From contig CALSSQ010000001.1 of the NCBI GenBank assembly GCA_943789065.1, positions 746,426-810,425 of the forward strand: 64,000 bases of DNA, written 5' to 3'. Shown here in pieces: positions 27,077 through 47,181 of this stretch; the stretch's first letter is position 1; every line of letters begins with the position of its first letter. Origin of the DNA: an uncultured Candidatus Actinomarinales bacterium. GTDB taxonomy: Bacteria > Actinomycetota > Acidimicrobiia > Actinomarinales > Actinomarinaceae. A model generated the notes under the pieces. That model was not told the DNA's origin and ran no database searches. It worked only from the letters and a program-made list of their open reading frames with translations. Made by a program: the position numbers and the translations under genes.

Positions 27077-28029
27077 GAAAAGTTTTTAGTTGGTCTTACC
27101 CCAACTTCACTTATAACATGCGCAGCACTTCTATTAGCTATATCAGCCGATTCTTCAATAGAAAGTTTTTGTTGTAGGCCGTATAGATACCCTGCTGCAA
27201 AATAATCACCGGCACCTGTTTTATCTACAACTTTTGCTTCAGTTGCGTCATAATGTACTTTCTCACCTTTGCTGACTACAACTGCCCCCTTTGGGCCTAA
27301 TGTGCATACTAATTCTTCTAGATTGGGGAACTCTTTTTTAAAATAATCAAAAGCTTCTTCTGCTGTTTCTTTCTTTGATAGGGCGATAATCTCTTCTTCA
27401 TTGCAAAAAACAAAATCAATACTCTCTTTGATGAATTCAACAAAGCTGTCTCTATGCATCTCCACACAAAATACATCAGATAATGTAATCGCATTTTTTC
27501 CACCTGTTGATTTATTTAGATTTGCAGCATGTAAGAAAGCATCTTTGCTTGTGGGTCTGTCCCAGAGGTATCCTTCCATATACAGAATTTCAGCAGATTC
27601 TATTGCTTTTTCATCTAAATCTTCAACTGTAAGAAATGCTCCAGCTCCTAAATATGTATTCATTGTACGTTCACCATCTGGGGTTATAAAAATTGCACAA
27701 TGACCAGTTTGATTGTCTTCTGATTCAAAAACTGTAAAATCCTTAAGTCCAGAGTCTTTAACACTTGCTTTGAATTGTTCGCCAAGTTCATCCTCAGAAA
27801 TTTTTCCGATAAACCCTACATTTCCACCTAACTGTGCAGCCCAATATGCAGTGTTTGCCGCTGAACCGCCTGCAGCACGAATTGGACTAGTCATTGAATC
27901 CAGCAAAACATTTGATCTATCTTTATCAACTAGTGTCATCCTTGCTTTATTTAATTCAAGTTCATCAATGACCTCTTCTTCAATTTTCTGAAGAGAGTCG
28001 ACCATTGCATTTCCAATACAAATTATCAC
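27073..28029 (-). CDS. PfkB-family carbohydrate/nucleoside kinase (adenosine-kinase-like)
   Basis: ORF track 318 aa; ribokinase-fold motifs incl. C-terminal DKTGAGDYFAAGYLYG. Confidence 0.75.
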   Translation of the reverse strand: MIICIGNAMVDSLQKIEEEVIDELELNKARMTLVDKDRSNVLLDSMTSPIRAAGGSAANTAYWAAQLGGNVGFIGKISEDELGEQFKASVKDSGLKDFTVFESEDNQTGHCAIFITPDGERTMNTYLGAGAFLTVEDLDEKAIESAEILYMEGYLWDRPTSKDAFLHAANLNKSTGGKNAITLSDVFCVEMHRDSFVEFIKESIDFVFCNEEEIIALSKKETAEEAFDYFKKEFPNLEELVCTLGPKGAVVVSKGEKVHYDATEAKVVDKTGAGDYFAAGYLYGLQQKLSIEESADIANRSAAHVISEVGVRPTKNFS

Positions 28030-28038
28030 AAATAAATG

Positions 28039-28398
28039 TTAGATGACTGTGCCAATATTGTCGTGTAAATCTATTATTTTTTCAGAAGTTAGGGATAGCT
28101 TGTTCATACCTCCATTTAAGTTGAAAGAGTTAATACCTTCTTTTTCTAGAAAAGAACAGACACGTCCAGATCTTCCTCCGGACCGACAAATGATAATGTA
28201 GTTTTCGGCTGTTGAGAAATTTTCGATATTTTCAGGGATTGTACCCATAGGAATATGCTCAGCCTCTGAGTGATGCCCCGCATCCCATTCATCTTGTTCT
28301 CGAACATCAATTAGTTTATAGCCTGCCTTTAGTAAATCTTCTAACTTTTCCGGCATAACTTCTTCATTTTTATTATCCATATCGAATACCACTTGCAT
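28039..28398 (-). CDS. Rhodanese-domain sulfurtransferase
   Basis: ORF track 119 aa; active-site loop CRSGGRS. Confidence 0.75.
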   Translation of the reverse strand: MQVVFDMDNKNEEVMPEKLEDLLKAGYKLIDVREQDEWDAGHHSEAEHIPMGTIPENIENFSTAENYIIICRSGGRSGRVCSFLEKEGINSFNLNGGMNKLSLTSEKIIDLHDNIGTVI

Positions 28399-29212
28399 CC
28401 TCCCTAAGTCTTCGTACTCTTTCTGCTGTTGGTGGGTGTGTAGAAAAAAGTTTTCGCATTCCTCCTCCAGATAATGCTTTTAACGGATCTGATATAAATA
28501 ACTGACTTACAGCAGGATTTATATTCATTGGCAGTTTTGCGTATGCCTCAATTTTTTCTAGTGCTGAAGCTAGTGCTAATGGGTTACCAGAAATTTCCGA
28601 TCCTGTTCTGTCAGCTCCAAACTCCCTAGTTCTTGAGATTGCCATACGTATTATTATTGATGCTAATGGAGCTGCTATGAGAGCAATAATAAAAAACAAT
28701 GGATGAGTATTTCTATTTCTGTTACCTCCACCCCACAGAACACTCCTTGACATAAAAGATATCGTTGAAGCTAACATTGCTGCAATACTCGATACTAAAA
28801 TATCTCTATTTTTGATATGTGAAATTTCATGTGCCAATACCCCTTCGAGTTCATCATTATTTAATACCTTTAAAATACCAGTCGTAACAGCGATACTTGC
28901 ATTTTTAGGATTTCTTCCAGTCGCAAATGCATTAGGTTGGTCATTTTGAATAATGTACAATCGAGGCATGGGCATTTTTTCTTTTTGGATAAGATATTTA
29001 ACAATTCCTCTTACCTCTTCATACTCCCCATCTCCAATTTCTATTGCCTTAGTGGAGGAGAGTGCAATCTTGCCAGAATAGAAATATATTAAAAAGTTGA
29101 AAATACCAGCCAAAGCAATAGAAAAAATTAAGTTATAACCAAGTGTTTGTGCTGTAAAAAGAACAACAAGACTCATTAGGGTTAACAGAGCAGTTGTTTT
29201 TACTTGATTCAT
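28373..29212 (-). CDS. htpX: M48-family zinc metalloprotease HtpX
   Basis: ORF track 279 aa; HEISH zinc motif, N-terminal TM helices. Confidence 0.85.
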   Translation of the reverse strand: MNQVKTTALLTLMSLVVLFTAQTLGYNLIFSIALAGIFNFLIYFYSGKIALSSTKAIEIGDGEYEEVRGIVKYLIQKEKMPMPRLYIIQNDQPNAFATGRNPKNASIAVTTGILKVLNNDELEGVLAHEISHIKNRDILVSSIAAMLASTISFMSRSVLWGGGNRNRNTHPLFFIIALIAAPLASIIIRMAISRTREFGADRTGSEISGNPLALASALEKIEAYAKLPMNINPAVSQLFISDPLKALSGGGMRKLFSTHPPTAERVRRLREDASGIRYG

Positions 29213-29236
29213 GTTATTAATTATAAATGGTGTAGT

Positions 29237-30262
29237 TTATATTTTTTTTGCAATAAGCATCTTGAACCCACCTAGACCACGATTATTGTTAATTGCCTCT
29301 AAACCAACAAGATCAGACTTGATTTTTAATTTATCTAATCCGTCAGCATTTTGAAATTTGGTTTGAATTTTTTTATAAAAAGCTTCAAAGCCGTTCAATT
29401 GTAAAAATTCTTTTTGTGTGTGGAGTTCGACTGCGTAATCTAATCTTGATAAACAGTTCTTTATACTAGAAAAATTTACATCATAGGTTATATCAGTTGT
29501 TGTTGGTTGAAGCAATGTTTCACCTGCAAGATGATGATTTTTATAGGTTCTTATAAGTGACTTATAGGGGATGCTTGACCTTTCATGAAATTCATAACCG
29601 TAATCAATTATGAGAAGATAATTAGGATTAAATCTTGATACGATACCTTCAAGATATTTTGTTGCATTTCTCTGAATCTCAATCTCAATGTCATCTAAGG
29701 GCTCAATATTGTTAGATTCTATCCAAGTTAAATTTTCAGGCCTCATGGGCGCTAATTCATAACTTAGTGAATCAGATTCTATTTTAATAATTTTTTCGAG
29801 CCATACACCATCTTTATATACACCAACAGAGCATGGTATATTATCGAGGACTTCATTCATGTATACTAAATTAACTTTATCAACTGGAATCAAATCCAAA
29901 GTTTCAAAAACATTAAATTCTTTTTGTTTCAGAATTCTGAATGCGGTATTTGATTTTTCGACAAGAAAAAGATTATTTGTTGAATATTCTTGAATCTGCG
30001 TAGCCAATGAGCCAGTACCCGCCCCAATTTCTACTACATTAGATTTAATTTTATTTTCATTCATCCAGTGTGAAATAAACTTTCCAAAGTATTTAGATAC
30101 TTCAGGTGACGTTAGGAAATCACCTTCTATGTTAGATCGAACTTTTGTAGTATTGAAGAACCCAGATTCTGAATAAAGACTTTCTTCCATGTATTCATCA
30201 AAAAATATGTCGTTGCGTTGATATTTTTCTTGAAGATGTTTTATAAAATTAAAGCTAGACAA
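29237..30262 (-). CDS. Class I SAM-dependent methyltransferase, MidA/NDUFAF7-like (COG1565-type)
   Basis: 341 aa; GDFLTSPEVSKYFGKFISHWM resembles the MidA DFxTSPE motif, VVEIGAGTGSLA resembles the SAM-binding GPGRGTL block; 5 bp downstream of nuoN on the same strand. Confidence 0.6.
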   Translation of the reverse strand: MSSFNFIKHLQEKYQRNDIFFDEYMEESLYSESGFFNTTKVRSNIEGDFLTSPEVSKYFGKFISHWMNENKIKSNVVEIGAGTGSLATQIQEYSTNNLFLVEKSNTAFRILKQKEFNVFETLDLIPVDKVNLVYMNEVLDNIPCSVGVYKDGVWLEKIIKIESDSLSYELAPMRPENLTWIESNNIEPLDDIEIEIQRNATKYLEGIVSRFNPNYLLIIDYGYEFHERSSIPYKSLIRTYKNHHLAGETLLQPTTTDITYDVNFSSIKNCLSRLDYAVELHTQKEFLQLNGFEAFYKKIQTKFQNADGLDKLKIKSDLVGLEAINNNRGLGGFKMLIAKKI

Positions 30263-30267
30263 CCTTA

Positions 30268-31668
30268 TTAACTATTAAAGAATAATGCCGAAGCATTACC
30301 TAGATTTGAAAAAATATTTGGAAAAATTCCTGCAAGAAATGTAATCACTAGACTTATGAAACCAACTACTTTTAAGGGGCTCAACAGTACAGGTTTAGTA
30401 TTAATTGTTATATTTTCAGATGGAGAATCCATCCAAATTATTTTTGAAATTCTTGCGTAGAAAACAAGACCAATGACTGCATTAATCGCTCCAATAATCG
30501 CCAACGTTATTCCATAGACTTCACCGGTACTTAGCAAGCTTCTAAATACAACGAACTTTGCAAACCAACCACCTAGTGGTGGTATTCCAGCAAGTGAGAA
30601 GAAAAATACAGTTGCAAAAATAGCTGTTAATGGTTGATGTTTTGCTAGGCCTCCCCATTCATAGATATCGTTACTGCCACTAGTATTTATAAGAACATTT
30701 ACGACAAGAAATGCGCCCAAGTTCATGAATGCATAAATAATTAAATAAGTGACGCTGGCATAAATTCCATCAGCATAGTCTCCTGAAATTCCAGCTACTG
30801 CAAGTGGAGCTAAAATAAATCCCGCTTGAGCTATTGACGAATATGCTAAAAGCCTTACTGGATTTGATTGTTGAAGGGCAGATAAATTTCCGATGAACAT
30901 TGTTAGACCTGAAATAAAGACCAATACAATACCCCAACTTGAACCTGAATCTGGGAAGACCTTTGTAAGGATAATCATTAATGCTACGAAACCAGTCGCT
31001 TTAGAACTAACTGATAAATAAGCTGTTACTGGAAGCGGTGATCCCTCATATGTGTCTGGTGCCCATGAATGAAAGGGGACAACCGAAATTTTAAAACCTA
31101 TACCAGCCAGTATTAACATTACGCTCAATAACGCCGCTGGTGATGTTGACAGATTGTTTACTAATAAGATTTTAGAAATTTCAGAAAAGATTAATTCTCC
31201 GGTCAATCCGTAAAGTAAAGAGAATCCATACAAAATGAGTGATGCAGATAATACTCCTAACAAGAAAAATTTAATTGCTCCCTCGTTAGACTTTTGATCT
31301 CCTTTTTTCCAGCCAGACAATAAAAACATAGGTGCAGAAGCTAATTCAATACCAATAAAAAGTGTCAGCATATCTCTTGATGATGTAACAACCAGCGCTC
31401 CGAGTAGTGAGCTTAATAGTAGGTAGTAATACTCCCCCTGGTAATATCTGTCACTTTCTATAAAGTTAATTGAAAGCAGGAATGTAAGATAGGTCACCAA
31501 GATAAAAAGGCCTTTTAAAATAATAGAAAATTTATCAATAACATAGCTTCCTTCAAAAAGGATTATTGGATTTTCGTAATTTACCCACTGAAAAATTAGA
31601 GGTAGGAAGGAAATCAATGATCCCAGTAGTGCAACTAATGCAATGTAAAATTTTGACCTTCTTGGCAA
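30268..31668 (-). CDS. nuoN: NADH-quinone oxidoreductase subunit N (operon 1)
   Basis: ORF track 466 aa; antiporter-like membrane subunit, operon position. Confidence 0.88.
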   Translation of the reverse strand: MPRRSKFYIALVALLGSLISFLPLIFQWVNYENPIILFEGSYVIDKFSIILKGLFILVTYLTFLLSINFIESDRYYQGEYYYLLLSSLLGALVVTSSRDMLTLFIGIELASAPMFLLSGWKKGDQKSNEGAIKFFLLGVLSASLILYGFSLLYGLTGELIFSEISKILLVNNLSTSPAALLSVMLILAGIGFKISVVPFHSWAPDTYEGSPLPVTAYLSVSSKATGFVALMIILTKVFPDSGSSWGIVLVFISGLTMFIGNLSALQQSNPVRLLAYSSIAQAGFILAPLAVAGISGDYADGIYASVTYLIIYAFMNLGAFLVVNVLINTSGSNDIYEWGGLAKHQPLTAIFATVFFFSLAGIPPLGGWFAKFVVFRSLLSTGEVYGITLAIIGAINAVIGLVFYARISKIIWMDSPSENITINTKPVLLSPLKVVGFISLVITFLAGIFPNIFSNLGNASALFFNS

Positions 31669-31750
31669 AATGAGATCGAAAAATATTGTAGCTATAATTG
31701 TAAAAACAACAATTAATTCACTAGAAATTGCAAGGTAATTAATGGAAATA

Positions 31751-33340
31751 TTAGCCTCCGAATGCTTTAGTAACCAAACTGATTACAGCATCATTTGTAG
31801 ATCCGAAAATTAACTTAGGAAATACTCCAATTAAGATTGTTAAAATAACGAGGGGTATCCAAGCTGCTAATTCGTATGCATCCGCATCATGGAGTTTTTT
31901 ATCTTTCCATTCGTCATTTGGCTCTCCTAAATTAACTCTTTGAAGCATCCAGAGTAAATAGCCAGCAGTCAGAACTGTACCTATTGCCCCAGCAACCATG
32001 GATGTTCTGAATATTGTGATATTTAGTCCTGGTAATGGATTGTATGCTCCTAATAGAGCCATAAATTCTCCCCAGAAGCCTGCTAGTCCAGGTAGTCCAA
32101 GTGAGGCCATTGCTGTAAATGCCAGTAATCCACCAGTTTTGGGCAAAAGTTTCATATTTCCACCAAGTCTTCCCATATCTCTGGTGTGATAAGTGTGAGC
32201 CATCGATCCAGATAAGAAGAAAAGTAAACCCGTAATTACACCGTGTGCAACCATGCCAATTATTGCAGCATTAATACCAATAGATGTCAAAGAGGAGATT
32301 CCTAGCATTACAAAACCCATGTGACCCACTGATGAAAAAGCTATTAGCCTTTTGAGGTCAGTTTGTGCTAGACATGCTAACGAACCATAAATTATTCCAA
32401 TAGCTGACAGTATTGCAATCGCTGGTGCCCAAGCTTGTGCTTGCTCAGGTAAAATTGGTAAAGCAATTCTTACAAATCCATAGGAACCTAATTTTAGAAG
32501 TATTGCGGCAAGTAATACTGATCCAACTGTTGGTGCTGCCGTATGAGCATCTGGAAGCCAAGTATGGAGAGGCCACATTGGAACCTTAACTGCGAAGCCC
32601 AGAAATAGAACTGCAAAAACGAGTGTTGCAAAAGTTCCAGTAAATGCCCCACTTGTTCCTAATTCTATTAACTCAGGAATACTGAAAGTTTTGGCTCCTC
32701 TGAAATAAAGTCCTAAAAATCCAAGCAGCATAAAAGCAGAACCGAAAAGTGTAAAAACAAAAAACTTAATACTTGCATATAAGCGAGTCTCAACCTCATT
32801 TTTAAGACCAGCAACACTCCTCATTGTTTTATCTCCCCAAATTCCAATCATGAAATACATAGGTAGTAGGACAAGTTCAAAGAATACAAAGAAGAGTATT
32901 AAATCTAAAGCTACGAAAGTACCATTCATTCCAGTTTCTAAGATTAAAATAAGCGCCATCATTCCCTTTGGACTTTTTGGCTCAGGTAAATGCTCGAAGG
33001 AATAAATTATTGCTAATACTGTAATAAAGGTTGAAAGAAGCAGCATGGGTAGGGATATGCCATCAATACCAATTTCATAATTAGAATTTATTGCCTCTAT
33101 CCAAGAAAGTTTATTTCCCAACTGAAACTGTTCTGCTTTGGAGTAATCAAACTGAATAGCAACAATTACGCTTAATATGAAAGTGATTAGTGAAGAACCA
33201 AGTGCTGTTAACTTTATCAATAACTCTTGTTTTTTTGGCAATAGTGCAACGACTAAAGCACTTAATAGAGGGAGGAATACAACCAAAGTTATACCCAGTC
33301 CATTCTCTAAAAATTCAAAATTATTAGTTACTATTTCCAC
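31751..33340 (-). CDS. nuoM: NADH-quinone oxidoreductase subunit M (operon 1)
   Basis: ORF track 529 aa; Mrp-antiporter-like, WLPDAH motif. Confidence 0.9.
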   Translation of the reverse strand: MEIVTNNFEFLENGLGITLVVFLPLLSALVVALLPKKQELLIKLTALGSSLITFILSVIVAIQFDYSKAEQFQLGNKLSWIEAINSNYEIGIDGISLPMLLLSTFITVLAIIYSFEHLPEPKSPKGMMALILILETGMNGTFVALDLILFFVFFELVLLPMYFMIGIWGDKTMRSVAGLKNEVETRLYASIKFFVFTLFGSAFMLLGFLGLYFRGAKTFSIPELIELGTSGAFTGTFATLVFAVLFLGFAVKVPMWPLHTWLPDAHTAAPTVGSVLLAAILLKLGSYGFVRIALPILPEQAQAWAPAIAILSAIGIIYGSLACLAQTDLKRLIAFSSVGHMGFVMLGISSLTSIGINAAIIGMVAHGVITGLLFFLSGSMAHTYHTRDMGRLGGNMKLLPKTGGLLAFTAMASLGLPGLAGFWGEFMALLGAYNPLPGLNITIFRTSMVAGAIGTVLTAGYLLWMLQRVNLGEPNDEWKDKKLHDADAYELAAWIPLVILTILIGVFPKLIFGSTNDAVISLVTKAFGG

Positions 33341-33348
33341 TTTTCCTC

Positions 33349-35367
33349 CTATAACACTAACAAAATTAATAAGCTAATTACTATTACTCCGCTTAAAAAA
33401 TACATAATATACTGTTGAGCTTTTCCAGTCTGAAGAAGTTTTACTCTTGCACCCAATGCGTCAGTAGATGAAGATGATATGTTTAATGCTTTATCTATCC
33501 CCCCTTGGTCAAATTTGTTGTACACGATATTTCCAAGGAATATAGCAGCAACTCCAAATAGATTCACAGCTTTGTCTAGAATATTTGTGTTAAATCTATC
33601 AACAGTATTTGCAAGTGTGGATTTAGTTGGATTTATGATGTATTTGAAATAAAAATCATCTAAGTAATATTTATTTTCAAGAAGATTCCATATTGGCTCA
33701 ACTTTAATCTTTTCATCTCCATCTTCTGGTCTACCTAAAATTTGATAGACATAGTAAGCAAGTCCAATACCAGCTAGCCCGGCGAGTAAGCCACTTGTTA
33801 ATGCAAAGTAGTCAAAAGATTCAGGATGATACTCGACTATAGGGTTTTTCCTTGTGGTCACCCAATCAGTAAAGCCCGTATATATTCCTGGAATGTTTAC
33901 CCACCCAGCAGTTACTGCGAAGCCTGCAAGTACAATAAGAGGTGTCGTCATCATAGAGTCTGACTCGTGTGGATGACCATTACCTCTATATTCCCCAAAG
34001 AATGTCAGAACCACGGCTCTAGTCATATAAAAAGCAGTGATAAAAGCACCTGCTACAGCAATAGCAAAATAGGTGTTATATCCTCCGTGATTTAAAGAGG
34101 CGAGTATCTCGTCTTTTGAGAAAAAGCCAGCAAGAGGGGGCAGTCCTGTAAGAGCAATTGTTCCCAGAATAAATGTTGTATATGTTCTGGGCATCTCTTT
34201 TTTGAGCCCACCCATTTCTTTCATGCTGTTTGTATGTACGGCATGAATTACTGATCCTGCACCAAGAAACAGTAGGGCTTTAAAAAAAGCATGTGTCCAA
34301 AGGTGAAATAATGCAGCTGTATAGGCTCCAGATCCAATAGCAGCCACCATATAACCAAGCTGACTGACAGTTGAATATGCGAGAACTTTTTTGAGATCAT
34401 CTTGAACTATGGCTATCATTCCAGCTGCAAAAAGGGTTATAACTCCAAACAGCAAGACCACGTCCAATGCTTCGCTTGCCATACCTTCATAAAAAGGAAA
34501 CATTCTTGCTAGTAAATAAACACCTGCTGTGACCATTGTTGCTGCGTGCATTAGTGCTGAGACTGGTGTTGGACCTGCCATTGCATCAGGTAGCCAGACA
34601 TGAAGCGGGAACTGAGCACTTTTACCCATAGCCCCTATAAATAGTAAAACTCCAGCCAGATAGGCAACTGATTTAAGTGACTCATAATCATGAGTTGATT
34701 GATATAAAATTTCACTTATTCTCATCGTACCTGTAGAAAGCGCCAGCACAATTATTCCAATCATTAATCCAACATCTGCAATTTTGTTGGTTATAAAAGC
34801 CTTCATAGCAGCAGATGAGTTTTCTTTCTTTTCCCAATAATGACCAATTAACAAATAGGAGCAAACACCTACTAGCTCCCAACCAATTAAAAGTTGTAAT
34901 AATGTTGGTGAGGAAACCAAAACTAACATACTTCCAGCAAACAAAGTTAGAGAGGTGAAGAAAAAAGTATATCTGACTTCTCCCTGCATATAATTTGTGG
35001 CGTAAATGAAAACTAAACTAGCCACTGTCCCTACAACAAAATACATCATTATAGAAAGACCGTCTACCACCCAACCAAATTCAAGATCAAATGAACCAAT
35101 GCTTCCCACATTGATAAAAAATTCTGAAGCTACTCCTTCTGTCACATTTAAATAGAGTAGGTATGAACTGAAAGCAAAGATGAAACCTATCGTAGCAAGC
35201 GCAATTTCAGCACCCTTAAGTGGTAGATATTTTCCAAAGAAAGTAATTAGAAGAGCAGCTATAAATGGGAGAACAACAATCAACCAAGTGTACTCAGCGA
35301 AAGTTCCACCATCAGTGTATGTAACTTTTCCTTCAGCTAGAAAGGTGATTAAATTACTATTTACCAT
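33349..35367 (-). CDS. nuoL: NADH-quinone oxidoreductase subunit L (operon 1)
   Basis: ORF track 672 aa; WLPDAMAGPTPVSALMHAATMVTAG motif. Confidence 0.92.
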   Translation of the reverse strand: MVNSNLITFLAEGKVTYTDGGTFAEYTWLIVVLPFIAALLITFFGKYLPLKGAEIALATIGFIFAFSSYLLYLNVTEGVASEFFINVGSIGSFDLEFGWVVDGLSIMMYFVVGTVASLVFIYATNYMQGEVRYTFFFTSLTLFAGSMLVLVSSPTLLQLLIGWELVGVCSYLLIGHYWEKKENSSAAMKAFITNKIADVGLMIGIIVLALSTGTMRISEILYQSTHDYESLKSVAYLAGVLLFIGAMGKSAQFPLHVWLPDAMAGPTPVSALMHAATMVTAGVYLLARMFPFYEGMASEALDVVLLFGVITLFAAGMIAIVQDDLKKVLAYSTVSQLGYMVAAIGSGAYTAALFHLWTHAFFKALLFLGAGSVIHAVHTNSMKEMGGLKKEMPRTYTTFILGTIALTGLPPLAGFFSKDEILASLNHGGYNTYFAIAVAGAFITAFYMTRAVVLTFFGEYRGNGHPHESDSMMTTPLIVLAGFAVTAGWVNIPGIYTGFTDWVTTRKNPIVEYHPESFDYFALTSGLLAGLAGIGLAYYVYQILGRPEDGDEKIKVEPIWNLLENKYYLDDFYFKYIINPTKSTLANTVDRFNTNILDKAVNLFGVAAIFLGNIVYNKFDQGGIDKALNISSSSTDALGARVKLLQTGKAQQYIMYFLSGVIVISLLILLVL

Positions 35368-35666
35368 TTCAACAAATCAAATTCATCAATATTTGCAGTT
35401 TTTCTATTTCTAAACAACATTAAAACAATCGCCAAACCAATCCCTACTTCAGCAGCGGCTATGGTGATAATGAAAATAGTAAAAATTTGACCCTGTAATA
35501 ATGCATCTCCTAACATTGCATTGAAGACTACAAAGTTTATATTCACAGCATTGAGGATTAACTCGATAGACAACAACACCATAACAACATTCCTTCTAAC
35601 TAAAATTCCATAAATCCCAATTGAAAATAATCCTGCTGCTGCAATTAAAAAAGGCTGAGCACTCAT
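35361..35666 (-). CDS. nuoK: NADH-quinone oxidoreductase subunit K (operon 1)
   Basis: ORF track 101 aa; 3-TM NuoK-like, AAAEVGIGLAI motif. Confidence 0.9.
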   Translation of the reverse strand: MSAQPFLIAAAGLFSIGIYGILVRRNVVMVLLSIELILNAVNINFVVFNAMLGDALLQGQIFTIFIITIAAAEVGIGLAIVLMLFRNRKTANIDEFDLLKW

Positions 35667-36181
35667 ATTTGATTCTCGTCAACTAAGGCATTATCTTGCC
35701 TTGCCAAGGTGATTCCACCAATTAAAGCGGCTAGTAAAACGAAAGAGACTACTTCAAAAGGAAATACAAACCTGCTTAATAAAATCTCACCCAGTAATTC
35801 TGTTGAGGTTCCGGTTGTAACAATAATTTGCGAATCGAATGTGTTAAACATCACATATGAAAAAATTACAAAAATTGATAGAGAGACAACTAATGCTAAA
35901 CTTTTGTTCTTATCATTATCTAGTTCCGCATTTTGACCTAATGGCGCTCTAGTGATCATTATTCCAAATAAGAAAAGAACTATTACAGCACCTATGTATA
36001 CAAGAACTATCACCAGTGCAACAAATTCCGCGGACAGTAGTAAAAAAGTTGCAGCTGTTATAGCTAATGTGAAAACTAAAGATATTGCTGCATGAATAAC
36101 GTTTGAAGTTGTGACAACTTTTACAGAAACTAATAAAAGTCCTAAAAGTAAAAAATAACTGATGATGTCCAGTGCTTCCAT
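35663..36181 (-). CDS. nuoJ: NADH-quinone oxidoreductase subunit J (operon 1)
   Basis: ORF track 172 aa; operon position, membrane protein. Confidence 0.85.
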   Translation of the reverse strand: MEALDIISYFLLLGLLLVSVKVVTTSNVIHAAISLVFTLAITAATFLLLSAEFVALVIVLVYIGAVIVLFLFGIMITRAPLGQNAELDNDKNKSLALVVSLSIFVIFSYVMFNTFDSQIIVTTGTSTELLGEILLSRFVFPFEVVSFVLLAALIGGITLARQDNALVDENQI

Positions 36182-36182
36182 T

Positions 36183-36668
36183 TTAACTCTCTAAACCTTC
36201 CACTTCAGGAACTGTGTTTAGCCATTGATCGAGTCTATTTTTATCATGAAGCATATCCCCCATATTGTATTCTGAATATTCGTACTCTGGTGTCCAAAAC
36301 AATGCATCAAAAGGACATACCTCAACACAAATTCCGCAATACATGCAGAGAGCATAGTCAATATCGAACCTGTCAAGAACTGCTCTACTGCGTTCCCTAC
36401 CACCAGGTTTTGCAGGGGGTTGTAATTCTTTATGTCCTTCTATGTAAATACACCAATCTGGGCATTGTCTCGCACAAAGCATGCAGCTAGTGCAAGCATC
36501 TGTATCAAGTGCTATGACTCCCCTTGCTCTGGGTGCAACAATTTCTTTTTCAAATGGGTAATTAACATTTGGATTTGGACTTAGTGGAGATAATGTCTTG
36601 AACATATTAAATAAAAGAATTTTCATTCCAGTCAAAAAGCCAGGTAATTTAGGTCTAAATTTTTTCAT
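36183..36668 (-). CDS. nuoI: NADH-quinone oxidoreductase subunit I (operon 1)
   Basis: ORF track 161 aa; two ferredoxin-type 4Fe-4S motifs (CxxCxxCxxxCP). Confidence 0.92.
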   Translation of the reverse strand: MKKFRPKLPGFLTGMKILLFNMFKTLSPLSPNPNVNYPFEKEIVAPRARGVIALDTDACTSCMLCARQCPDWCIYIEGHKELQPPAKPGGRERSRAVLDRFDIDYALCMYCGICVEVCPFDALFWTPEYEYSEYNMGDMLHDKNRLDQWLNTVPEVEGLES

Positions 36669-37649
36669 TTAAAATACAACTTTCATTATGGATGTTATCA
36701 ATATGTTGAGTAAAGAAAGCGGAATTAAAACCTTCCATGCTAAGTTTTGTAGCTGATCTTCTCTGAATCTAGGAAATGACCATCTCACTAAAACTAATAT
36801 GAAGCCCAGCAAAACTGTTTTAGTAATTAAGACAACTGGTCCATAAAAGTTGACCCATTCAGGTGGGAGAAGTGGGACATGATATCCACCTAGAAATAAT
36901 GTGGAAGCAACTGCACATAATACAAACATGTTCATGTATTCAGCAATATAAAATATTAAAAATCTTACGCCAGAATATTCTGTTAAAAATCCACTAACAA
37001 GTTCGGACTCACCAATTGGCATATCGAATGGTACTCTCATCATTTCAGCTGTTGCAGCTATCATAAAAATTAGGAAGGCAAGACCTTGGCCAGAAAGTGC
37101 AAATGGAAGTCCAAATTCTATTTGTTTCTCAACTATCCCAACAAGTGACATGGTTTCTGCCTGGATGACAACTCCAACTACTGCAAGAATTAATGGAAGT
37201 TCATATGCAATTAACTGTCCTGCAGCACGTATTCCACCCATTAAAGAGTACTTGTTTGCTGAGGACCAACCTGCAGTAAGAACCCCTAGTGTTGATAGCG
37301 AACTTATCGCTAGCAAATAGAAGACTCCTAAATCTAAATCACTCCCAACTAAAGTTGGGCTAATTGGTACAACAACGAATAAACCGAAGACTGATGCAAG
37401 TACATAAGCTGGTGCCCATTTAAAGACAGGAGCGTCAACATTAGTCGGTGTGATGTCTTCTTTTTGGAAAAATTTAATTATTTCAGCTAGTGGAAAAATG
37501 AATCCTCTTAATCCAACATGAAGGGGGCCCGGTCTTCTTTGCATCCATGATGCTCCTTTAACATCGAGAATTGTAAATATTACTGCTCCGTTTAGTGCAA
37601 AAGCTAAAACGATACCTGCAGTTACTAATATCTGAGATCCATCAATCAT
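36669..37649 (-). CDS. nuoH: NADH-quinone oxidoreductase subunit H (operon 1)
   Basis: ORF track 326 aa; NuoH/ND1-like. Confidence 0.9.
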   Translation of the reverse strand: MIDGSQILVTAGIVLAFALNGAVIFTILDVKGASWMQRRPGPLHVGLRGFIFPLAEIIKFFQKEDITPTNVDAPVFKWAPAYVLASVFGLFVVVPISPTLVGSDLDLGVFYLLAISSLSTLGVLTAGWSSANKYSLMGGIRAAGQLIAYELPLILAVVGVVIQAETMSLVGIVEKQIEFGLPFALSGQGLAFLIFMIAATAEMMRVPFDMPIGESELVSGFLTEYSGVRFLIFYIAEYMNMFVLCAVASTLFLGGYHVPLLPPEWVNFYGPVVLITKTVLLGFILVLVRWSFPRFREDQLQNLAWKVLIPLSLLNILITSIMKVVF

Positions 37650-38842
37650 CTATCAACATCCCCTAAAACAAAATCTAGACTGCCCATGATTGCAATCAGA
37701 TCAGGTAACAATTGACCTTCAAGCAGTACTGGGAGGATGGAAATATTACTAAAGGACGGTGTTCTAATTTTTAGTCGGTATGGACCTAGACCACCCTCAG
37801 AAATTACATAGTATCCCATTTCACCTTTTGGATTTTCTGTCCTTACATAAGATCGTCCCTTAGGTACTTTTATAACCTTTGGAACTTTTGTCTGTAGGGG
37901 TCCACTTGGCATGGAGTCAATAGCTTGAAGTATAATTTTAGCTGACTCTCTCATCTCTAGTAGTCGAACATACCAACGATCATAACAATCTCCATTTTCT
38001 CCAACAGGAATCTCGTATTCAAATTTGTCATACGGTAAGAAATCGGTTTGAGTCCTTAAATCAAACTTTACTCCAGATGCTCTCAATATCGGTCCAGAGA
38101 CTCCATATTCTTCAGCAAGTTCTTTGGATATTATCCCAACTCCTTTAGTCCTAGCCTTAAAGACTTCGTTGCCACCAACTAAATCTTCCATTCTCTCAAC
38201 AGCTTCTAGAACCTTCTCCATTGCGTCTCTAGTTTCTTGATAGAAACCTGCTGGTAGATCTTGTACATTTTTTTTGGTTGTGGGGCCCGAACCTGCTGCT
38301 GGTTTTACTCCACCTATTCTATTAAAATTTGGATGAAACCTACCACCTGTTACTGATTCTATTAAATCAAGTATTCTTTCTCTATCCTCCATTGCTAAAA
38401 ATATAGGAGTTAACGCCCCGATCTCTAATGCATAAGCTCCATTGAATACAAAATGAGAAGCAATTCTTGCCATCTCTGTGAGAATCAACCTGATGTGCTT
38501 TGCTCTTTCAGGTGCTTCTATCTCCATTAGCTTTTCAGTTGCAGCAATGAAAGGTATCTCATTAGCAAAACCTGATACCCAATCAATTCTATTAACAAGT
38601 GTTGTAATTTGGGGATATGTTCTGACCTCAGCTAATTTTTCATAGCCTCTGTGCATATAACCTAGAACAGGCTCGACACTTGAAATTTTTTCTCCATCTA
38701 CTTTGGCAACCAGTCTTAATACACCATGTGTTGAGGGATGTTGTGGGCCAATGTTTAGAGTCATGTCTTCAGTTTCTATTTCAACTGAGACCGAAGCTTC
38801 TGAAACATAAGGAACATTTCCTGTATTTAAAATATCATCCAT
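37646..38842 (-). CDS. nuoD: NADH-quinone oxidoreductase subunit D (operon 1; start placed at ATG 38842 after AGGAAG RBS)
   Basis: NIGPQHPSTHGVLRL and GYMHRGYEKL motifs typical of NuoD/49-kDa subunit; the longer ORF-track start overlaps nuoC. Confidence 0.92.
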   Translation of the reverse strand: MDDILNTGNVPYVSEASVSVEIETEDMTLNIGPQHPSTHGVLRLVAKVDGEKISSVEPVLGYMHRGYEKLAEVRTYPQITTLVNRIDWVSGFANEIPFIAATEKLMEIEAPERAKHIRLILTEMARIASHFVFNGAYALEIGALTPIFLAMEDRERILDLIESVTGGRFHPNFNRIGGVKPAAGSGPTTKKNVQDLPAGFYQETRDAMEKVLEAVERMEDLVGGNEVFKARTKGVGIISKELAEEYGVSGPILRASGVKFDLRTQTDFLPYDKFEYEIPVGENGDCYDRWYVRLLEMRESAKIILQAIDSMPSGPLQTKVPKVIKVPKGRSYVRTENPKGEMGYYVISEGGLGPYRLKIRTPSFSNISILPVLLEGQLLPDLIAIMGSLDFVLGDVDR

Positions 38843-38843
38843 T

Positions 38844-39395
38844 TTAATTATCTTCCTTTGAACCGTTTTCTGGCATACCTTCGACATCTACTTCACCAGG
38901 CCATGGCTTAACTTCTCTACTGATCAACTCAAATGATTTGAGCATTGGATTTCCCTCGTAGTCATCTGGAAGATACATTTTTGTGAGGTTTGGATGATTA
39001 TTGAACTCGATACCAAACATTTCGTATGCTTCTCGTTCGTGCCAATTAGAACCTGCAAAAACCTCAATTAAGGATGGAATCATTGCATCTTCTTTTTCTA
39101 TTTCAGTAGATACTAAAACAACATTTCCTTCAATTGACTCTGACAAGCAAAAAACTATTTCAAAATGTGGTGATACTGATTCTTTCGGGGGGTCTCCTAC
39201 TGAAACTTCATTTTCCCAATCAATGGCGCTTAGCCATGAAAAGTAAGTAAGTTGAAATTCTTCTTTAAGAATTTTTGCTGTTTCTACCCATTCTTCTGGT
39301 TTTACTTTTATTTTTAGGGTATCAAATTCATTTTCTACACTAGAAAATTTTGTAGATATTGACTCAATAAACTCTGCATTGCTAGACAGGTTCAT
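38844..39395 (-). CDS. nuoC: NADH-quinone oxidoreductase subunit C (operon 1)
   Basis: ORF track 183 aa; NuoC/30-kDa-like ([12 protein letters not shown]). Confidence 0.9.
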
Positions 39396-39879
39396 TTTGA
39401 TCTGCTTTCCATTTTTCTTTCATGTCTTCTCCTCTTATTTTTTCTTGTAGGAGAATAATTCCCTCTTGTAAAGCTTCAGGTCTTGGAGGACATCCTGGAA
39501 CGTATACGTCAACAGGGATAAGTTGATCCACACCTTTTGTAACAGAGTATGAATCCCAATATGGACCACCGCTATTTGAACAGGAACCCATAGATATGAC
39601 ATATTTTGGCTCTGGCATTTGATCATATAGTCTTTTTACTGCTGGTGCCATTTTGTCTGTGACTGTTCCAGCGACAACCATTAAATCAGCTTGTCTTGGT
39701 GATGCAGGTAGTGGGATAATTCCAAGTCTCATAAAATCATGTCTGGGTCCACTTACTGCCATAACTTCTATTGCACAGCAAGCTAATCCAAATTGGAAAT
39801 ACCACAAAGAGTATGACCTAGCCCAGTTTAAAACTGACGATATCGGTTTTGGTAATCCGAATTTATCAACTACTCCCAT
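39382..39879 (-). CDS. nuoB: NADH-quinone oxidoreductase subunit B (operon 1)
   Basis: ORF track 165 aa; N2 cluster ligands CCAIE ... [10 protein letters not shown] ... [11 protein letters not shown]. Confidence 0.93.
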
Positions 39880-40235
39880 TTCAATACATCCTTTCTAATT
39901 GCATAAATTAATCCGATTAACAAAATAAAAATAAAAACTAGCATTTCCACTAAACCAAAATAACCTAACTTCTCAAGATTAATTGCCCATGGGAATATGA
40001 ATACTGCTTCAACATCAAAAATTACGAACAATAGGCCAAAAATATAGTATCGAATGTAAGTCTGACTCCAACCTGTCCCGACGGGGTCAACACCTGACTC
40101 GTAGGTTGTAAGTTTTTCAGGAGAGGGATTATTCGGCCTGAGGATAGCTGCAATAGATGTCAAAATGAGCATAAATATAATGCCCACTGCTAACAATACT
40201 GCTACTGTTGCGTACTCCTGAAAATAAGAATTCAT
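39870..40235 (-). CDS. nuoA: NADH-quinone oxidoreductase subunit A (operon 1)
   Basis: ORF track 121 aa; 3-TM NuoA-like, first gene of operon. Confidence 0.88.
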
Positions 40236-40311
40236 AATTTGATTTTAACCAACCTGTAGGAAATTTTAGTTTTATTTGAAAGTTGAGCGTAATTGTTTGT
40301 AAACTTTTTTT

Positions 40312-41406
40312 ATGAGCAATCTTGAAAATATTTTAGGAAAAAGTAGCTTACTCGACCTATCAAAAAAACTATTTAATGTAGTTACAAAGACAGTTGACTT
40401 TCATGAAGAACATGAAATAAATCTTGATTCTAAAATTCTTCAAGCAGAAACCATAAATTTTGTTTTAGCCGATGGTCTTGGAAGTGAAAACTTAAAACTA
40501 GCTAAGTCTGATTATTTAAAGGATTCAAATTCTTTTTCTGTAAATTCAACTTTTCCTAGCTCAACTAATGTTGCTTTAAGCACTATTAACTATGTATCTA
40601 AGCCTGTGGAGACATCAATTTTAGGTTATTATCTCTTTGATAGAGAAGAGCACGGACTTATTAATGCCTTAAACTGGAACAAAGAAAACAAATCTTTATT
40701 AAAACATCCAGATATTAAAGACCGACAAACCATATGGACTCTTTTAAGAAATAAAGGTATTACCTCCAATAACCTACAACCTCGCGACTTAGTAGATAGT
40801 GCATTGTCTGAATACATCTATAAAGACTCCCATCAGATTGCATATAAAGACACAGAAGAATTAAATGAAATAGTTAGTGACTCTTCAGTATTGGATAATC
40901 GCTTTAATTTTATTTACTATCCGAATATTGATATCTCAGCCCATGTTTTTGGAGTAGGTAGTGATCAGTGGCATGAAGAAGTTGGTATTTTTGAAATGTT
41001 TATAAAGAATTTAAACAGTACTCAATCCAAAAAAATGTACACCTTGATAACGGCAGATCACGGTCTCACAAACATCTCTAATGAGAATCGGATTCATCTA
41101 GATTATGAGGAGGATGTTGTTGTCTACGGAGATCAGAGAAGTGTTTATATCAATGGTGACGAAACGAAAGTTAAAAAAATATTTAAGAATGTCCCTGGAC
41201 GTTTTCTTAACAGTGTAGAAATAAGACACTTAATTGGAGAACCTACAAATAATCTAAACAAAAGGCTTTACCCTGACCACTGTTTCCTTGTAGATGATGG
41301 ATACATTATTTTTCCAAAACATTTAAAGGCCAACTTGGTTGGATACCATGGAGGAATTACAGAAGAAGAAATGCGGGTACCTGTTATAGAAATTATTAAC
41401 TTTTAA
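40312..41406 (+). CDS. Alkaline-phosphatase-superfamily protein (nucleotide pyrophosphatase/phosphodiesterase-like), apparently cytoplasmic
   Basis: 364 aa; metal-ligand-like motifs VLADGLGSE, ITADHGLTN, GYHGG; no N-terminal signal peptide. Confidence 0.5.
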   Translation: MSNLENILGKSSLLDLSKKLFNVVTKTVDFHEEHEINLDSKILQAETINFVLADGLGSENLKLAKSDYLKDSNSFSVNSTFPSSTNVALSTINYVSKPVETSILGYYLFDREEHGLINALNWNKENKSLLKHPDIKDRQTIWTLLRNKGITSNNLQPRDLVDSALSEYIYKDSHQIAYKDTEELNEIVSDSSVLDNRFNFIYYPNIDISAHVFGVGSDQWHEEVGIFEMFIKNLNSTQSKKMYTLITADHGLTNISNENRIHLDYEEDVVVYGDQRSVYINGDETKVKKIFKNVPGRFLNSVEIRHLIGEPTNNLNKRLYPDHCFLVDDGYIIFPKHLKANLVGYHGGITEEEMRVPVIEIINF

Positions 41407-41422
41407 TGGTTAGACTGTATAA

Positions 41423-42208
41423 ATGAAATTTTTAAAAACTTTATTTATATTAGTAATCCTTAGTGCATGCCAGACAAACATAACAGAAGAGGGTTTTGCT
41501 GAGATAGGCATTGAGCCATCTATTGAGCCATATAGAATGGCATCTGACTCAATAGAAAGTAGTTCACTATCTCCAGGAGAGTACATAATCAAATCTGCCT
41601 ATGGAAGCATGGATGTTAGTACGTCTAATTTTGAGAAGAAAGTGGATGAATTCAAAAATCTTGTAACTCAATACAATGGCAATATTTCTGACTCATATTT
41701 ATCTACTAATTACCAAGGATTAAAGAGTTTTAGTATCACATCAAACATACCTGCCGCAGATTTTGATCAATTTATACTCGACGTTGAAAATATTAAAGAC
41801 TTTTCAGATATCAGCATCAATGCAAACGATGTTACAACTTATGTTTTAGATATTGACTCAAGGTTATCTTCATTGGTGAATGAAAAGGAAGCACTTGAGG
41901 AGATCAAACTTGAAGCGAAAACAACATCTGACCGCTTAGAGGTTCAAAATCAACTTCGTTATATCAATCAGGATATTGAGATGCTTAAGGGTCAAAAAGA
42001 ATATTACACAAATGCTGTTTCATACTCAAAACTCACATTAAACATCAGGGAAGGTTCTGGAATTTCATTATTTTCCTGGAATTATTATTTTGAGAGAAGC
42101 CTTAATTGGATTGAGAGCATCGTTGGAATTACTTTTTCAATCGGGATAATCGCTTTCCCAATTTTCTTAATATTCTTATTAATTAAGAAACTGAAAAAAA
42201 GAGAATAA
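41423..42208 (+). CDS. Lipoprotein with central coiled-coil and C-terminal TM anchor (DUF4349-like architecture)
   Basis: 261 aa; lipobox LSAC after N-terminal signal, coiled-coil region, C-terminal hydrophobic helix then KKLKKRE. Confidence 0.5.
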   Translation: MKFLKTLFILVILSACQTNITEEGFAEIGIEPSIEPYRMASDSIESSSLSPGEYIIKSAYGSMDVSTSNFEKKVDEFKNLVTQYNGNISDSYLSTNYQGLKSFSITSNIPAADFDQFILDVENIKDFSDISINANDVTTYVLDIDSRLSSLVNEKEALEEIKLEAKTTSDRLEVQNQLRYINQDIEMLKGQKEYYTNAVSYSKLTLNIREGSGISLFSWNYYFERSLNWIESIVGITFSIGIIAFPIFLIFLLIKKLKKRE

Positions 42209-42286
42209 TGGCCTTTTCCTACATTGGGCTTTTCTTAATAATCCTTTTAGTAATCTTCTTTGGAAGAAAGATTAAATAATCCTCAA

Positions 42287-43090
42287 TTAGTTTGGCTGAT
42301 ATGTTCCAGCAAATACTTGCCATGCTAGACAAGTTTTAGCAAGTAGACTCAACCATATATAGGCTCTTTCACCGTATAAATAGTCTTTCCACTTTCCTAC
42401 ACCTTTATATTGAAGAATCATATTTATTGAAAAAGTGTTAAAAAAGAAAAATATACTAACAAATATCCAGACTACGAATTGGGGAACCCCTTGAGGATTT
42501 GCATCTGTAGCAACTCCATCACCTATTAAATTGATAAAAATAAAAATCCACGGTGCAATACCAGCTAAACAACCCATGATATAAGCAGTCCAATCAACTT
42601 TTTCAGTATATTGATTGTGTACTTCCATCATCCAACCAAACCAACACATCGCAGCATTCATGACAAAAATTCCAGCTAGTGCCCAAACATCATAAATTCC
42701 TACAAGTAAAGCTATCAACACAATCATTACTGAAGCACTAATTGAGTACTCGATCCAGCGGACTTTATTAATACCTTTCATTAAATCTGCTTTATACCTG
42801 TTATAGAAAGGGCCCGATATAAGAAAATGTGCGAGTGCTGATGCCAACAAAAATGTTGCAACTGCAGGTCCGAAGTTTGATACCTCTCTCCAGATTTGTA
42901 GTTCGGGAACTAAAGCGAAGCTTGATGGATCTTCAGGAGTTCCAACTCCAATAAGTTGAGTAATTGTTAAGGGTACTGTGAAACCTGTATTTACTACGGT
43001 TCCCAAATAAAATAAACCTGCTCCTTGGATAAGGTGTACTAATCCCATTCTTAAATTAAATTTCTTAAGCTTCTGAATTTTTACTTCCAT
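42287..43090 (-). CDS. Heliorhodopsin (7-TM retinal-binding protein, inverted topology family)
   Basis: 267 aa; by-eye alignment to heliorhodopsin 48C12: LVHLIQ (His), ALAHFLI (His), RWIEYSISASVMIVLIA (counterion Glu), QYKGVGKWKDYLYGERAYIWLSLLAKTCLAWQ with Schiff-base Lys in last helix. Confidence 0.85.
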   Translation of the reverse strand: MEVKIQKLKKFNLRMGLVHLIQGAGLFYLGTVVNTGFTVPLTITQLIGVGTPEDPSSFALVPELQIWREVSNFGPAVATFLLASALAHFLISGPFYNRYKADLMKGINKVRWIEYSISASVMIVLIALLVGIYDVWALAGIFVMNAAMCWFGWMMEVHNQYTEKVDWTAYIMGCLAGIAPWIFIFINLIGDGVATDANPQGVPQFVVWIFVSIFFFFNTFSINMILQYKGVGKWKDYLYGERAYIWLSLLAKTCLAWQVFAGTYQPN

Positions 43091-43138
43091 TATTTTTTAC
43101 CTTTTTTATTAAATACTCTAAACCCTATTATTACAGAT

Positions 43139-43333
43139 ATGGATATTAATGAAATTAATAATGAGTTAGATAACTTAATTCGTGAATTAAACACTTTAGT
43201 TAAGTCACTAGCAAATTCAAGAGAGCTTATTGCAGAGGATAATTTTAAAAGAGCTACAAACTATCTTTCTGAGACTGAAATAGCACTTCAAGCAATCGCA
43301 GGAAAAGTATCTAAGATTAAACTACTTATTTGA
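43139..43333 (+). CDS. Small helical protein of unknown function (64 aa), divergent from heliorhodopsin
   Basis: ORF track 64 aa, predicted helical, only 48 bp from heliorhodopsin start; 3' end overlaps convergent ABC ATPase gene; could be spurious. Confidence 0.3.
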   Translation: MDINEINNELDNLIRELNTLVKSLANSRELIAEDNFKRATNYLSETEIALQAIAGKVSKIKLLI

Positions 43334-45903: not shown

Positions 45904-45944
45904 AATATAAGAATATCTATGTTAATGAGTTATATAAAGAAAAA

Positions 45945-45977
45945 ATCTGGCCAGGTTGATGTGACCAGATTTTTTTC
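45945..45977 (-). terminator. Intra-operon hairpin flanked by A-run and T-run between substrate-binding-protein and permease genes
   Basis: ATCTGGCCA-ggttgatg-TGACCAGAT (9-bp stem, 1 mismatch) with aaaaaa upstream and ttttttc downstream; works as terminator on either strand. Confidence 0.5.
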
Positions 45978-46008
45978 TTTTGTATATAGCATTAGTATCT
46001 AATGACTG

Positions 46009-47121: not shown

Positions 47122-47160
47122 AAAATATATTCCTTTTATTTGCTTATTATTGTTAACCAT

Positions 47161-47181
47161 ACTTAACATTAAATGTTAAGT
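47161..47181. promoter_or_regulatory. Perfect 10-1-10 palindrome, candidate operator upstream of the substrate-binding-protein gene
   Basis: ACTTAACATT-A-AATGTTAAGT; spacer too short for a hairpin, so protein-binding site likely; layout resembles DtxR/IdeR operators but sequence differs from consensus. Confidence 0.35.

Follow-up and report, generated by a model that had tools for sequence, protein, structure and literature searches.

The stretch of DNA considered here, 64,000 nucleotides (nt) long and termed the window in the following, stems from an uncultured Candidatus Actinomarinales bacterium (contig CALSSQ010000001.1 of assembly GCA_943789065.1, positions 746,426 to 810,425) and carries two operons for complex I (nuo), of which the first, operon 1, codes for eleven subunits and lacks nuoEFG, the genes for the NADH-oxidizing module (N-module). 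The explanation that accounts best for the observations as a whole is that operon 1 encodes a functional NADH-independent proton pump of the actinobacterial Nuo2 type with ferredoxin-type electron input, a reading to which about as much probability is granted as is withheld.

Operon 1 extends on the minus strand from the start codon of nuoA1 (40235) to the stop codon of nuoN1 (30268), exactly the boundaries given in a previous sequence-only reading of the window. The claim of that reading, an eleven-subunit operon without nuoEFG in which nuoD is directly followed by nuoH, is borne out by the list of open reading frames (ORFs) and by Pfam, which identify eleven contiguous co-directional genes in the order nuoA-B-C-D-H-I-J-K-L-M-N (30268-40235) with E-values of 1e-12 to 1e-97. 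Neighbouring genes overlap by 4-14 nt or are separated by 1-8 nt, with the exception of 82 nt in front of nuoN. Since the stop of nuoD1 and the start of nuoH1 overlap by 4 nt, there is no space for nuoEFG at the usual place, and as Pfam finds no product of the families PF01257, PF01512 and PF10588 in 27073-43090, no N-module is encoded together with operon 1.

The genes are, all on the minus strand, nuoA1 (39870-40235, 121 amino acids (aa); PF00507, E-value 6.5e-35), nuoB1 for the carrier of cluster N2 (39382-39879, 165 aa; PF01058), nuoC1 (38844-39395, 183 aa; PF00329), nuoD1 (37646-38842, 398 aa; PF00346), nuoH1 (36669-37649, 326 aa; PF00146), nuoI1 (36183-36668, 161 aa; Fer4 families), nuoJ1 (35663-36181, 172 aa; PF00499), nuoK1 (35361-35666, 101 aa; PF00420), nuoL1 (33349-35367, 672 aa; PF00361 and PF00662), nuoM1 (31751-33340, 529 aa; PF00361) and nuoN1 (30268-31668, 466 aa; PF00361). 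The longest nuoD1 ORF starts at 38887 and comprises 413 codons; as all homologues are 398 aa long, the start is probably at 38842.

With both paralogue sets aligned to the E. coli K-12 subunits, the eleven core subunits of the quinone-reducing (Q-) and proton-pumping (P-) modules of operon 1 are found to possess the ligands of clusters N2, N6a and N6b and the antiporter Lys/Glu residues. NuoB1 retains four of four N2 cysteines (E. coli C63, C64, C129 and C158) and both CxxCxxCxxxCP motifs of NuoI1, for N6a and N6b, are complete, while the tested pump residues of NuoL, NuoM, NuoN, NuoK and NuoA are all kept in the operon 1 and operon 2 sets alike. These residues are the equivalents of E. coli D79 and E81 in NuoA1 and of E36 and E72 in NuoK1, together with E144, D178, K229, H254, K342, K399 and D400 in NuoL1, E144, K234, K265, H322, H348 and E407 in NuoM1 and E133, K158, K217, K247 and K395 in NuoN1. 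No frameshift or internal stop interrupts operon 1 in the ORF list.

Selection was analysed by comparison of the window with two Actinomarinales relatives, which show 63-93% amino acid identity per gene. Nonsynonymous divergence (dN) of the operon 1 genes is 0.05-0.32, and its ratio to synonymous divergence (dS) is 0.02-0.2 in gene pairs with estimable dS, with nuoC1, the most divergent Q-module subunit, at 0.17-0.2; as dS is saturated (>1.4, and undefined in some genes), these ratios are upper-bound indications of purifying selection only. Judged by these comparisons, operon 1 is functional and under strong purifying selection.

The same data bear on the possibility, also considered in the sequence-only reading, that operon 1 is a copy of the canonical operon which has lost its function or is decaying. 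Such a reading could draw on the replacement of Tyr87 by Trp in NuoD1 and the loss of the ER[RK] motif and of E216 in NuoH1, normally conserved quinone-site residues, yet these deviations are themselves conserved throughout the clade. The identity of only 30-50% between the two paralogue sets shows the duplication not to be recent, the reading frames are uninterrupted and the dN/dS ratios low, and the cofactor ligands and tested pump residues are all intact. By the residue and divergence checks a decayed duplicate is effectively refuted, and its remaining probability is close to nil.

The most conspicuous deviation of operon 1 concerns the quinone site. Compared with Nqo4 of Thermus thermophilus, NuoD1 keeps His39 (corresponding to H38), but has Trp88 in place of Tyr87 (RIDW versus RMDY) and Glu140 in place of Asp139, so that the canonical combination of the quinone ligands His38 and Tyr87 with Asp139 is not present, whereas NuoD2 of operon 2 in the same organism keeps both Tyr and Asp. 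Tyr87 and His38 form hydrogen bonds with the quinone (Degli Esposti 2015, PMC4758237). Trp occupies the Tyr87 position in every clade member examined, comprising Actinomarinales, other Acidimicrobiia and the orphan NuoD2 of high-GC (guanine plus cytosine) Actinomycetota, within the clade signature L[AV][NS]R[HI]DW[LV]S[AG]; the Acidimicrobiia and most high-GC sequences have Glu or Gln at position 139, while Tyr87 and Asp139 persist in almost every representative that does not belong to the actinobacterial clade. In NuoH1, DVK stands in the first loop in place of the ER[RK] motif (-FK in Ilumatobacteraceae), and the first Glu of the loop between transmembrane helices 5 and 6 (E. coli E216) is replaced by Ile (PIGESEL), changes which are both kept across the Acidimicrobiia operons. 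In a non-exhaustive literature search, no description of Trp87, of the NuoH loop changes or of the methyltransferase link discussed below was found.

NuoD1 is 83-100% identical to proteins annotated as "Candidatus Actinomarina sp." or from metagenome-assembled genomes of Acidimicrobiaceae on hundreds of marine contigs. In an exhaustive search of representative sequences it stands isolated: apart from members of its cluster and some partial sequences at 51-82%, no full-length match exceeds 48% identity. The NCBIfam models that fit best are bacterial Nuo models, for NuoD1 the short 366-aa NuoD type (NF008974, 456 bits) and for NuoL1 NF005141 (618 bits). The nearest PDB match of NuoD1 is Thermus Nqo4 (347 bits), followed by cyanobacterial NdhH (331 bits), with chains of group-4 hydrogenases at 127-191 bits. 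With these scores, and with GPQHPSTHG and a C-terminal LGDVDR where the NiFe CxxC motifs would be, a group-4 [NiFe] hydrogenase identity was rejected, and the contiguous nuoABCDHIJKLMN set is distinct from these enzymes.

A genome scan seeded with the nearest NuoD relatives gave 598 confirmed matches, the best 80 of which are all loci of high-GC Actinomycetota (Streptomyces, Kribbella, Nocardioidaceae, Actinomadura, Streptosporangium, Nonomuraea, Intrasporangium and others). At none of these 80 loci does another nuo gene lie within 10 kb of nuoD2. As an individual observation, Kribbella (locus L013, 7233-8114 and 10004-11206) carries the isolated nuoD2 in a housekeeping stretch between panC and folP-like genes. 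In a neighbour-joining tree of 133 NuoD sequences with 200 bootstraps, Actinomarinales NuoD1, intermediate sequences from Ilumatobacteraceae and other Acidimicrobiia, and the orphan high-GC NuoD2 form one clade (173 of 200 replicates), apart from the Actinomarina 14-subunit NuoD2, E. coli, Thermus and cyanobacterial NdhH.

NuoD1 thus clusters with the Streptomyces-type NuoD2 and shares its R[HI]DW motif, which suggests that operon 1 is the Acidimicrobiia form of the second actinobacterial complex I, Nuo2, a lineage devoid of the N-module, and one case of a phylum-wide actinobacterial trait. By the same tree and model scores, the operon 1 enzyme would be neither Fpo nor cyanobacterial NDH-1. 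The likeness to these two enzymes, which the sequence-only reading had invoked for the electron donor, therefore stands as an analogy; as kinship it fails, with the corresponding models below their cut-offs and NuoD1 inside the Nuo2 clade.

At the loci of Ilumatobacteraceae and other Acidimicrobiia (L090-L092), the contiguous nuoABCDHIJKLMN genes are followed by a gene for a PF02636 methyltransferase in otherwise unrelated neighbourhoods, and the conserved unit is eleven nuo genes plus the methyltransferase. The corresponding gene of the window (29237-30262, minus strand; PF02636, E-value 1.7e-25) begins 5 nt after nuoN1, and PF02636 directly follows nuoN in Actinomarinales and other Acidimicrobiia. 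Of the 80 high-GC loci, 70 have a PF02636-like gene within 10 kb of the orphan nuoD2; the two genes usually share a strand, and at eight loci the methyltransferase gene lies 45-198 nt upstream of nuoD2. A functional link of methyltransferase and NuoD is supported by this pairing, as it outlasts the complete rearrangement of the other genes.

The mitochondrial homologue NDUFAF7 acts on NDUFS2, where it dimethylates the arginine in the motif HRGxE beside cluster N2; Thermus has Thr at this position (PMC8042128). NuoD1 contains this residue, Arg65, in the motif HRGYEK, while NuoD2 of operon 2 reads HTGMEK; methyltransferase and target arginine hence occur together in operon 1, and methylation of NuoD1 Arg65 by the NDUFAF7-type enzyme is predicted. 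Dimethylation of Arg65 beside N2 might serve in tuning of the cluster or as an aid to assembly.

Taken as a whole, the proposed mechanism starts from the complete Q- and P-modules of a redox-driven proton pump, NuoABCDHIJKLMN, which operon 1 would provide. A soluble low-potential carrier, most likely of the ferredoxin type, would dock directly to the complex, with electrons entering at NuoI and passing from N6a via N6b to N2 and finally to a quinone of the membrane, presumably menaquinone. Its reduction would take place at a remodelled site, with His kept, Trp for Tyr87, Glu for Asp139 and altered NuoH loops, and proton pumping by NuoL, NuoM and NuoN would come next. Labour would then be divided between a 14-subunit enzyme for NADH, controlled by Rex, and the eleven-subunit enzyme, through which electrons would reach the respiratory chain by a route of its own that does not depend on NADH.

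It is plausible that the operon 1 enzyme receives its electrons from another donor than NADH. An eleven-subunit NUO of Bacteroides fragilis has been reported to be without NADH:quinone activity (PMC7002350), and for eleven-subunit enzymes, which have no designated partner, ferredoxin is the favoured donor (PMC3144371, PMC11238625). That a ferredoxin-type carrier docks directly is proposed tentatively, at or slightly below an even balance of probability, by analogy with the precedent of cyanobacterial NDH-1 and the literature on eleven-subunit enzymes.

Several observations weigh against this proposal. Among the ORFs scanned in the window and at the related loci, neither a ferredoxin or flavodoxin nor an enzyme that reduces ferredoxin came to light near operon 1, and the cyanobacterial ferredoxin-docking subunits NdhS, NdhV and NdhO were not seen. 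A Lys-rich C-terminal tail of NuoI (GADKKKK, GAEKKKGK), present in Ilumatobacteraceae and other Acidimicrobiia (L090 12252-12740, L091 12237-12749, L092 12213-12728) and a possible attractor of acidic ferredoxin, is absent from the Actinomarina NuoI1, which ends in acidic residues. As Tyr87 is a key quinone ligand (PMC4758237), Trp at this position makes normal quinone reduction uncertain. Finally, Streptomyces nuo2 lacks nuoC (PMC8388888, PMC3765725), so that subunit sharing must be possible in some Actinobacteria.

Lys-rich tails of this kind resemble the tail of FpoI of Methanothrix that has been proposed to attract ferredoxin. NuoI of an Actinomarinales lineage with 84% identity (L085 12175-12954, L086 12175-12996) carries an N-terminal extension of approximately 100 aa, in which a short, apparently helical head is combined with three TPVAEEVVE repeats in tandem. 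NuoI1 of the window lacks this extension, which might serve that lineage specifically as an arm for docking or tethering.

Neither operon 1, nor the scanned ORFs of the window, nor the surroundings of seven related operons contain a NuoE/F paralogue, an FrhB/FpoF homologue, a hydrogenase or a ferredoxin. The only nuoEFG set seen lies 12 kb away in operon 2, and a shared N-module has therefore to be considered, whereby the Q- and P-modules of operon 1 would dock NuoEFG of operon 2 to form a second NADH:quinone isozyme with another quinone site or other pumping. Streptomyces, with nuo2 lacking nuoC and nuoD2 located elsewhere, makes hybrid assembly with nuo1 subunits plausible in the phylum. The subunits that contact NuoG have nevertheless diverged between the two operons (identity of NuoI 31%, NuoC 36% and NuoD 38%), the operons appear to be separately regulated, a Rex operator being present in front of operon 2 but not of operon 1, and the eleven genes plus methyltransferase are a self-contained unit in differing contexts across the Acidimicrobiia. 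A shared N-module is thus considered unlikely, though by no means negligible.

In contigs near-identical to the window, a rex-like gene (PF06971 and CoA_binding; L002 4641-5285) is located just 5' of operon 2, and a perfect Rex operator palindrome, TTGTGAAAACTTTCACAA, stands 30 bp 5' of operon 2 nuoA (L002 6721-6738, beyond the window end); with 12 specified bases, approximately 0.003 perfect matches would be expected by chance in 21 kb. A motif scan found no Rex operator in the divergent intergenic region of 76 bp 5' of nuoA1 (40236-40311), the presumed promoter region of operon 1, in the window and two relatives (L085, L087). The Rex operator precedes the 14-subunit operon only. In two Ilumatobacteraceae-type loci, a CRP/GlxR-like palindrome, TGTGA-N6-TCACG, is found approximately 38 bp 5' of the eleven-subunit nuoA (L091 8417-8432, L092 8382-8397); it is absent in Actinomarina.

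Lopez-Perez et al. (2020) proposed by analogy with the Methanosarcina Fpo enzyme that the eleven-subunit complex of "Ca. Actinomarinales" uses F420 (PMC7771536). Operon 1 would accordingly be an Fpo-like F420H2 dehydrogenase, with an unlinked FpoF-type subunit feeding the eleven-subunit core. Actinomarinales indeed make F420 and encode F420-dependent oxidoreductases, and identities of up to 35% to the fpo cluster of Methanosarcina mazei have been reported (PMC7771536). The Fpo models, though, score well below the Nuo models and far below their own cut-offs (FpoD 333 bits against a cut-off of 600, FpoH 244 against 475, FpoK 95 against 145, FpoL 366 against 1050, FpoI 46 against 180 and FpoC 72 against 220), as do the Ndh models (NdhH 353 against 583, NdhI 67 against 302). 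The operon, the scanned ORFs of its surroundings and the seven related loci contain neither FpoF nor FpoO, and Moparthi and Hagerhall found FpoF-type complexes in Euryarchaeota only. In its quinone site FpoD is the opposite of NuoD1, with Tyr87 present and His38 and Asp139 missing (PMC4758237); NuoD1 moreover groups with actinobacterial NuoD2 and not with archaeal sequences. F420H2 as the donor consequently appears improbable.

Even less conventional is the possibility that Nuo2-type enzymes are a distinct catalytic class, perhaps an oxidoreductase running in reverse, from quinol to ferredoxin or another low-potential acceptor, driven by the proton motive force and powered by rhodopsin in Actinomarina. 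The features common to the clade, Trp for Tyr87, Glu or Gln for Asp139, the altered NuoH loops and an obligatory NDUFAF7-type arginine methyltransferase by which N2 would be tuned, could together mark such a class. This is a speculative proposal with a low probability; if true, the reverse enzyme would in the light supply low-potential reductant to a streamlined aerobe, driven by a proton-pumping rhodopsin.

The second operon lies, also on the minus strand, between 52466 and the window end (64000), with a gap of 12.2 kb between nuoA of operon 1 and its nuoN. Pfam identifies nuoN (52466-53938), nuoM (53935-55437), nuoL (55422-57311), nuoK (57315-57623), nuoJ (57620-58144), nuoI (58150-58764), nuoH (58768-59865), a split nuoG (59855-62189), nuoF (62186-63475) and, from 63472, the 3' part of nuoE. 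The sequence-only reading had correctly ascribed nuoE, nuoF and nuoG to this operon, with the amendment that nuoE is cut by the window end and nuoG is split. Near-identical metagenomic contigs (L001-L004; 99.5-99.7% DNA identity) carry the complete standard 14-gene operon, with a nuoE of 204 aa and nuoA-D upstream, beyond the window end.

With NuoA-D of operon 2 taken from L002, which is 99.7% identical to the window, the identity between the paralogues amounts to 30-50% over the eleven shared subunits. As identity is this low, the two sets are to be regarded as old diverged paralogues and not as an assembly duplication, in agreement with what had been claimed.

The split nuoG consists of ORFs of 545 and 250 aa, separated by one extra A near 60562-60565 in a run of A (ATT AAA A GAT). 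Three near-identical contigs encode an intact NuoG of 777 aa (KIKDILE or KIKNLLE), while the frameshift also occurs in one contig, L003 (0.34% divergent). Compared with these alleles the split is probably a homopolymer sequencing error; if real, the frameshift would cut NuoG after its Fe-S domains. Programmed frameshifting was rejected, as a canonical slippery site is missing and contigs almost identical to the window carry the gene uninterrupted.

Downstream of the methyltransferase gene, operon 1 is followed on the same strand by tail genes identified by Pfam, for an htpX-like M48 protease (28373-29212), a rhodanese (28039-28398) and a pfkB kinase (27073-28029). On the other side, two plus-strand genes for a phosphodiesterase and a DUF4349 protein (40312-42208) are situated between nuoA1 and the heliorhodopsin gene (42287-43090), which lies 231 nt downstream of genes for an Fe3+ ATP-binding cassette (ABC) transporter (43322-47169) on the same strand as these. 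As the two plus-strand genes separate heliorhodopsin from nuoA1, operon 1 presumably has its own promoter, and a single heliorhodopsin-nuo transcript is unlikely here. A scan for consensus promoters and terminators in 26500-43500 gave fewer sites than in shuffled sequences. The linkage of htpX, rhodanese, pfkB and heliorhodopsin is restricted to the Actinomarinales (present in L085-L087, with the tail genes absent from L090-L092).

The relatives L085-L087 possess a ferrochelatase gene between those for the iron-binding protein and the iron-dependent repressor, where the window has a spacer of 298 bp (47170-47467) instead. The window has a GC content of 33-39%, in keeping with the Actinomarina and Acidimicrobiaceae matches of NuoD1. 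Its portion 361-25252, with strongly negative GC skew throughout, harbours ORFs of the size of ribosomal proteins and has, by ORF sizes only, the appearance of the conserved translation and transcription block, including two ORFs of approximately 1139 and 1307 aa with sizes consistent with rpoB and rpoC; tRNA genes for Trp, Met, Thr and Tyr in this portion are the only matches of the Rfam and tRNA scans.

With respect to significance, Actinomarinales abound in sunlit ocean waters, and their genomes measure approximately 1.1 Mb and contain very few paralogues. As approximately 10 kb of such a genome are kept for a second enzyme, a second complex I must matter to these organisms. The donor of eleven-subunit complex I-like enzymes is a long-standing question across many phyla, to which the present analysis adds as hypotheses an actinobacterium-wide lineage, Trp in place of a quinone-ligand Tyr, a dedicated NDUFAF7-type methyltransferase and Rex-independent regulation, which argue against the published F420/Fpo analogy. 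Culturable Actinobacteria with Nuo2, such as Streptomyces and cultured Ilumatobacteraceae, are suited as experimental models.

The arrangement of two nuo clusters is already published for this taxon. Lopez-Perez et al. (2020) described two clusters flanking heliorhodopsin in all "Ca. Actinomarinales", one of them without nuoEFG (PMC7771536), and Bulzu et al. (2021; bioRxiv 10.1101/2021.02.01.429150) a string of Fe3+ ABC transporter, heliorhodopsin, eleven-subunit "ancestral" complex I, NDUFAF7, htpX, rhodanese and adenosine kinase genes with a 14-subunit operon close by, which Pfam reproduces on the neighbours in the window. The view of the sequence-only reading that two complex I types are unusual in a small genome was therefore overstated, as the arrangement is conserved in Ca. 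Actinomarinales and has been published before, and Actinobacteria commonly have two nuo clusters. In structure the window does not differ from the published locus; added here are the residue checks, the selection analysis, the link to the NuoD2 clade, Trp for Tyr87 and the Rex operator. The single transcription unit of Bulzu et al. is argued against by the two opposite-strand genes between heliorhodopsin and nuoA1.

Archaeal Fpo, the F420H2:methanophenazine oxidoreductase, shares with operon 1 eleven homologous core subunits without NuoEFG, while the published analogy in F420 use has found no sequence support here. Cyanobacterial and chloroplast NDH-1 likewise possess the eleven core subunits without NuoEFG and are the proven precedent for direct ferredoxin input; they differ in that cyanobacterial NdhH keeps Tyr, and operon 1 is one contiguous operon with no NdhL-S-, NdhV- or NdhO-type genes among its neighbours. 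Gene set and order are the same in the 'ancestral' eleven-subunit enzymes of Bacillota, Bacteroidota, Chlorobi and Dehalococcoidia, which have no dedicated partner gene and for which ferredoxin is favoured (Moparthi and Hagerhall 2011; Willemin et al. 2024), whereas operon 1 belongs to an aerobic photoheterotroph with a canonical complex I in addition. With full nuoEFG 12 kb away, operon 1 falls outside the strict definition of an eleven-subunit enzyme, no nuoEFG anywhere in the genome (Degli Esposti 2015).

The actinobacterial nuo2 clusters come closest in lineage, an assignment made by NuoD only. Streptomyces and its relatives lack nuoC2 and have an isolated nuoD2, while in the Acidimicrobiia all eleven genes are contiguous. 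The Streptomyces nuo2 (A2, B2, H2-N2 plus orphan nuoD2) nevertheless resembles operon 1 in the lack of an N-module, the same NuoD clade and the Trp/Glu signature, and both actinobacterial systems are linked to a PF02636 methyltransferase and coexist with a canonical 14-gene operon.

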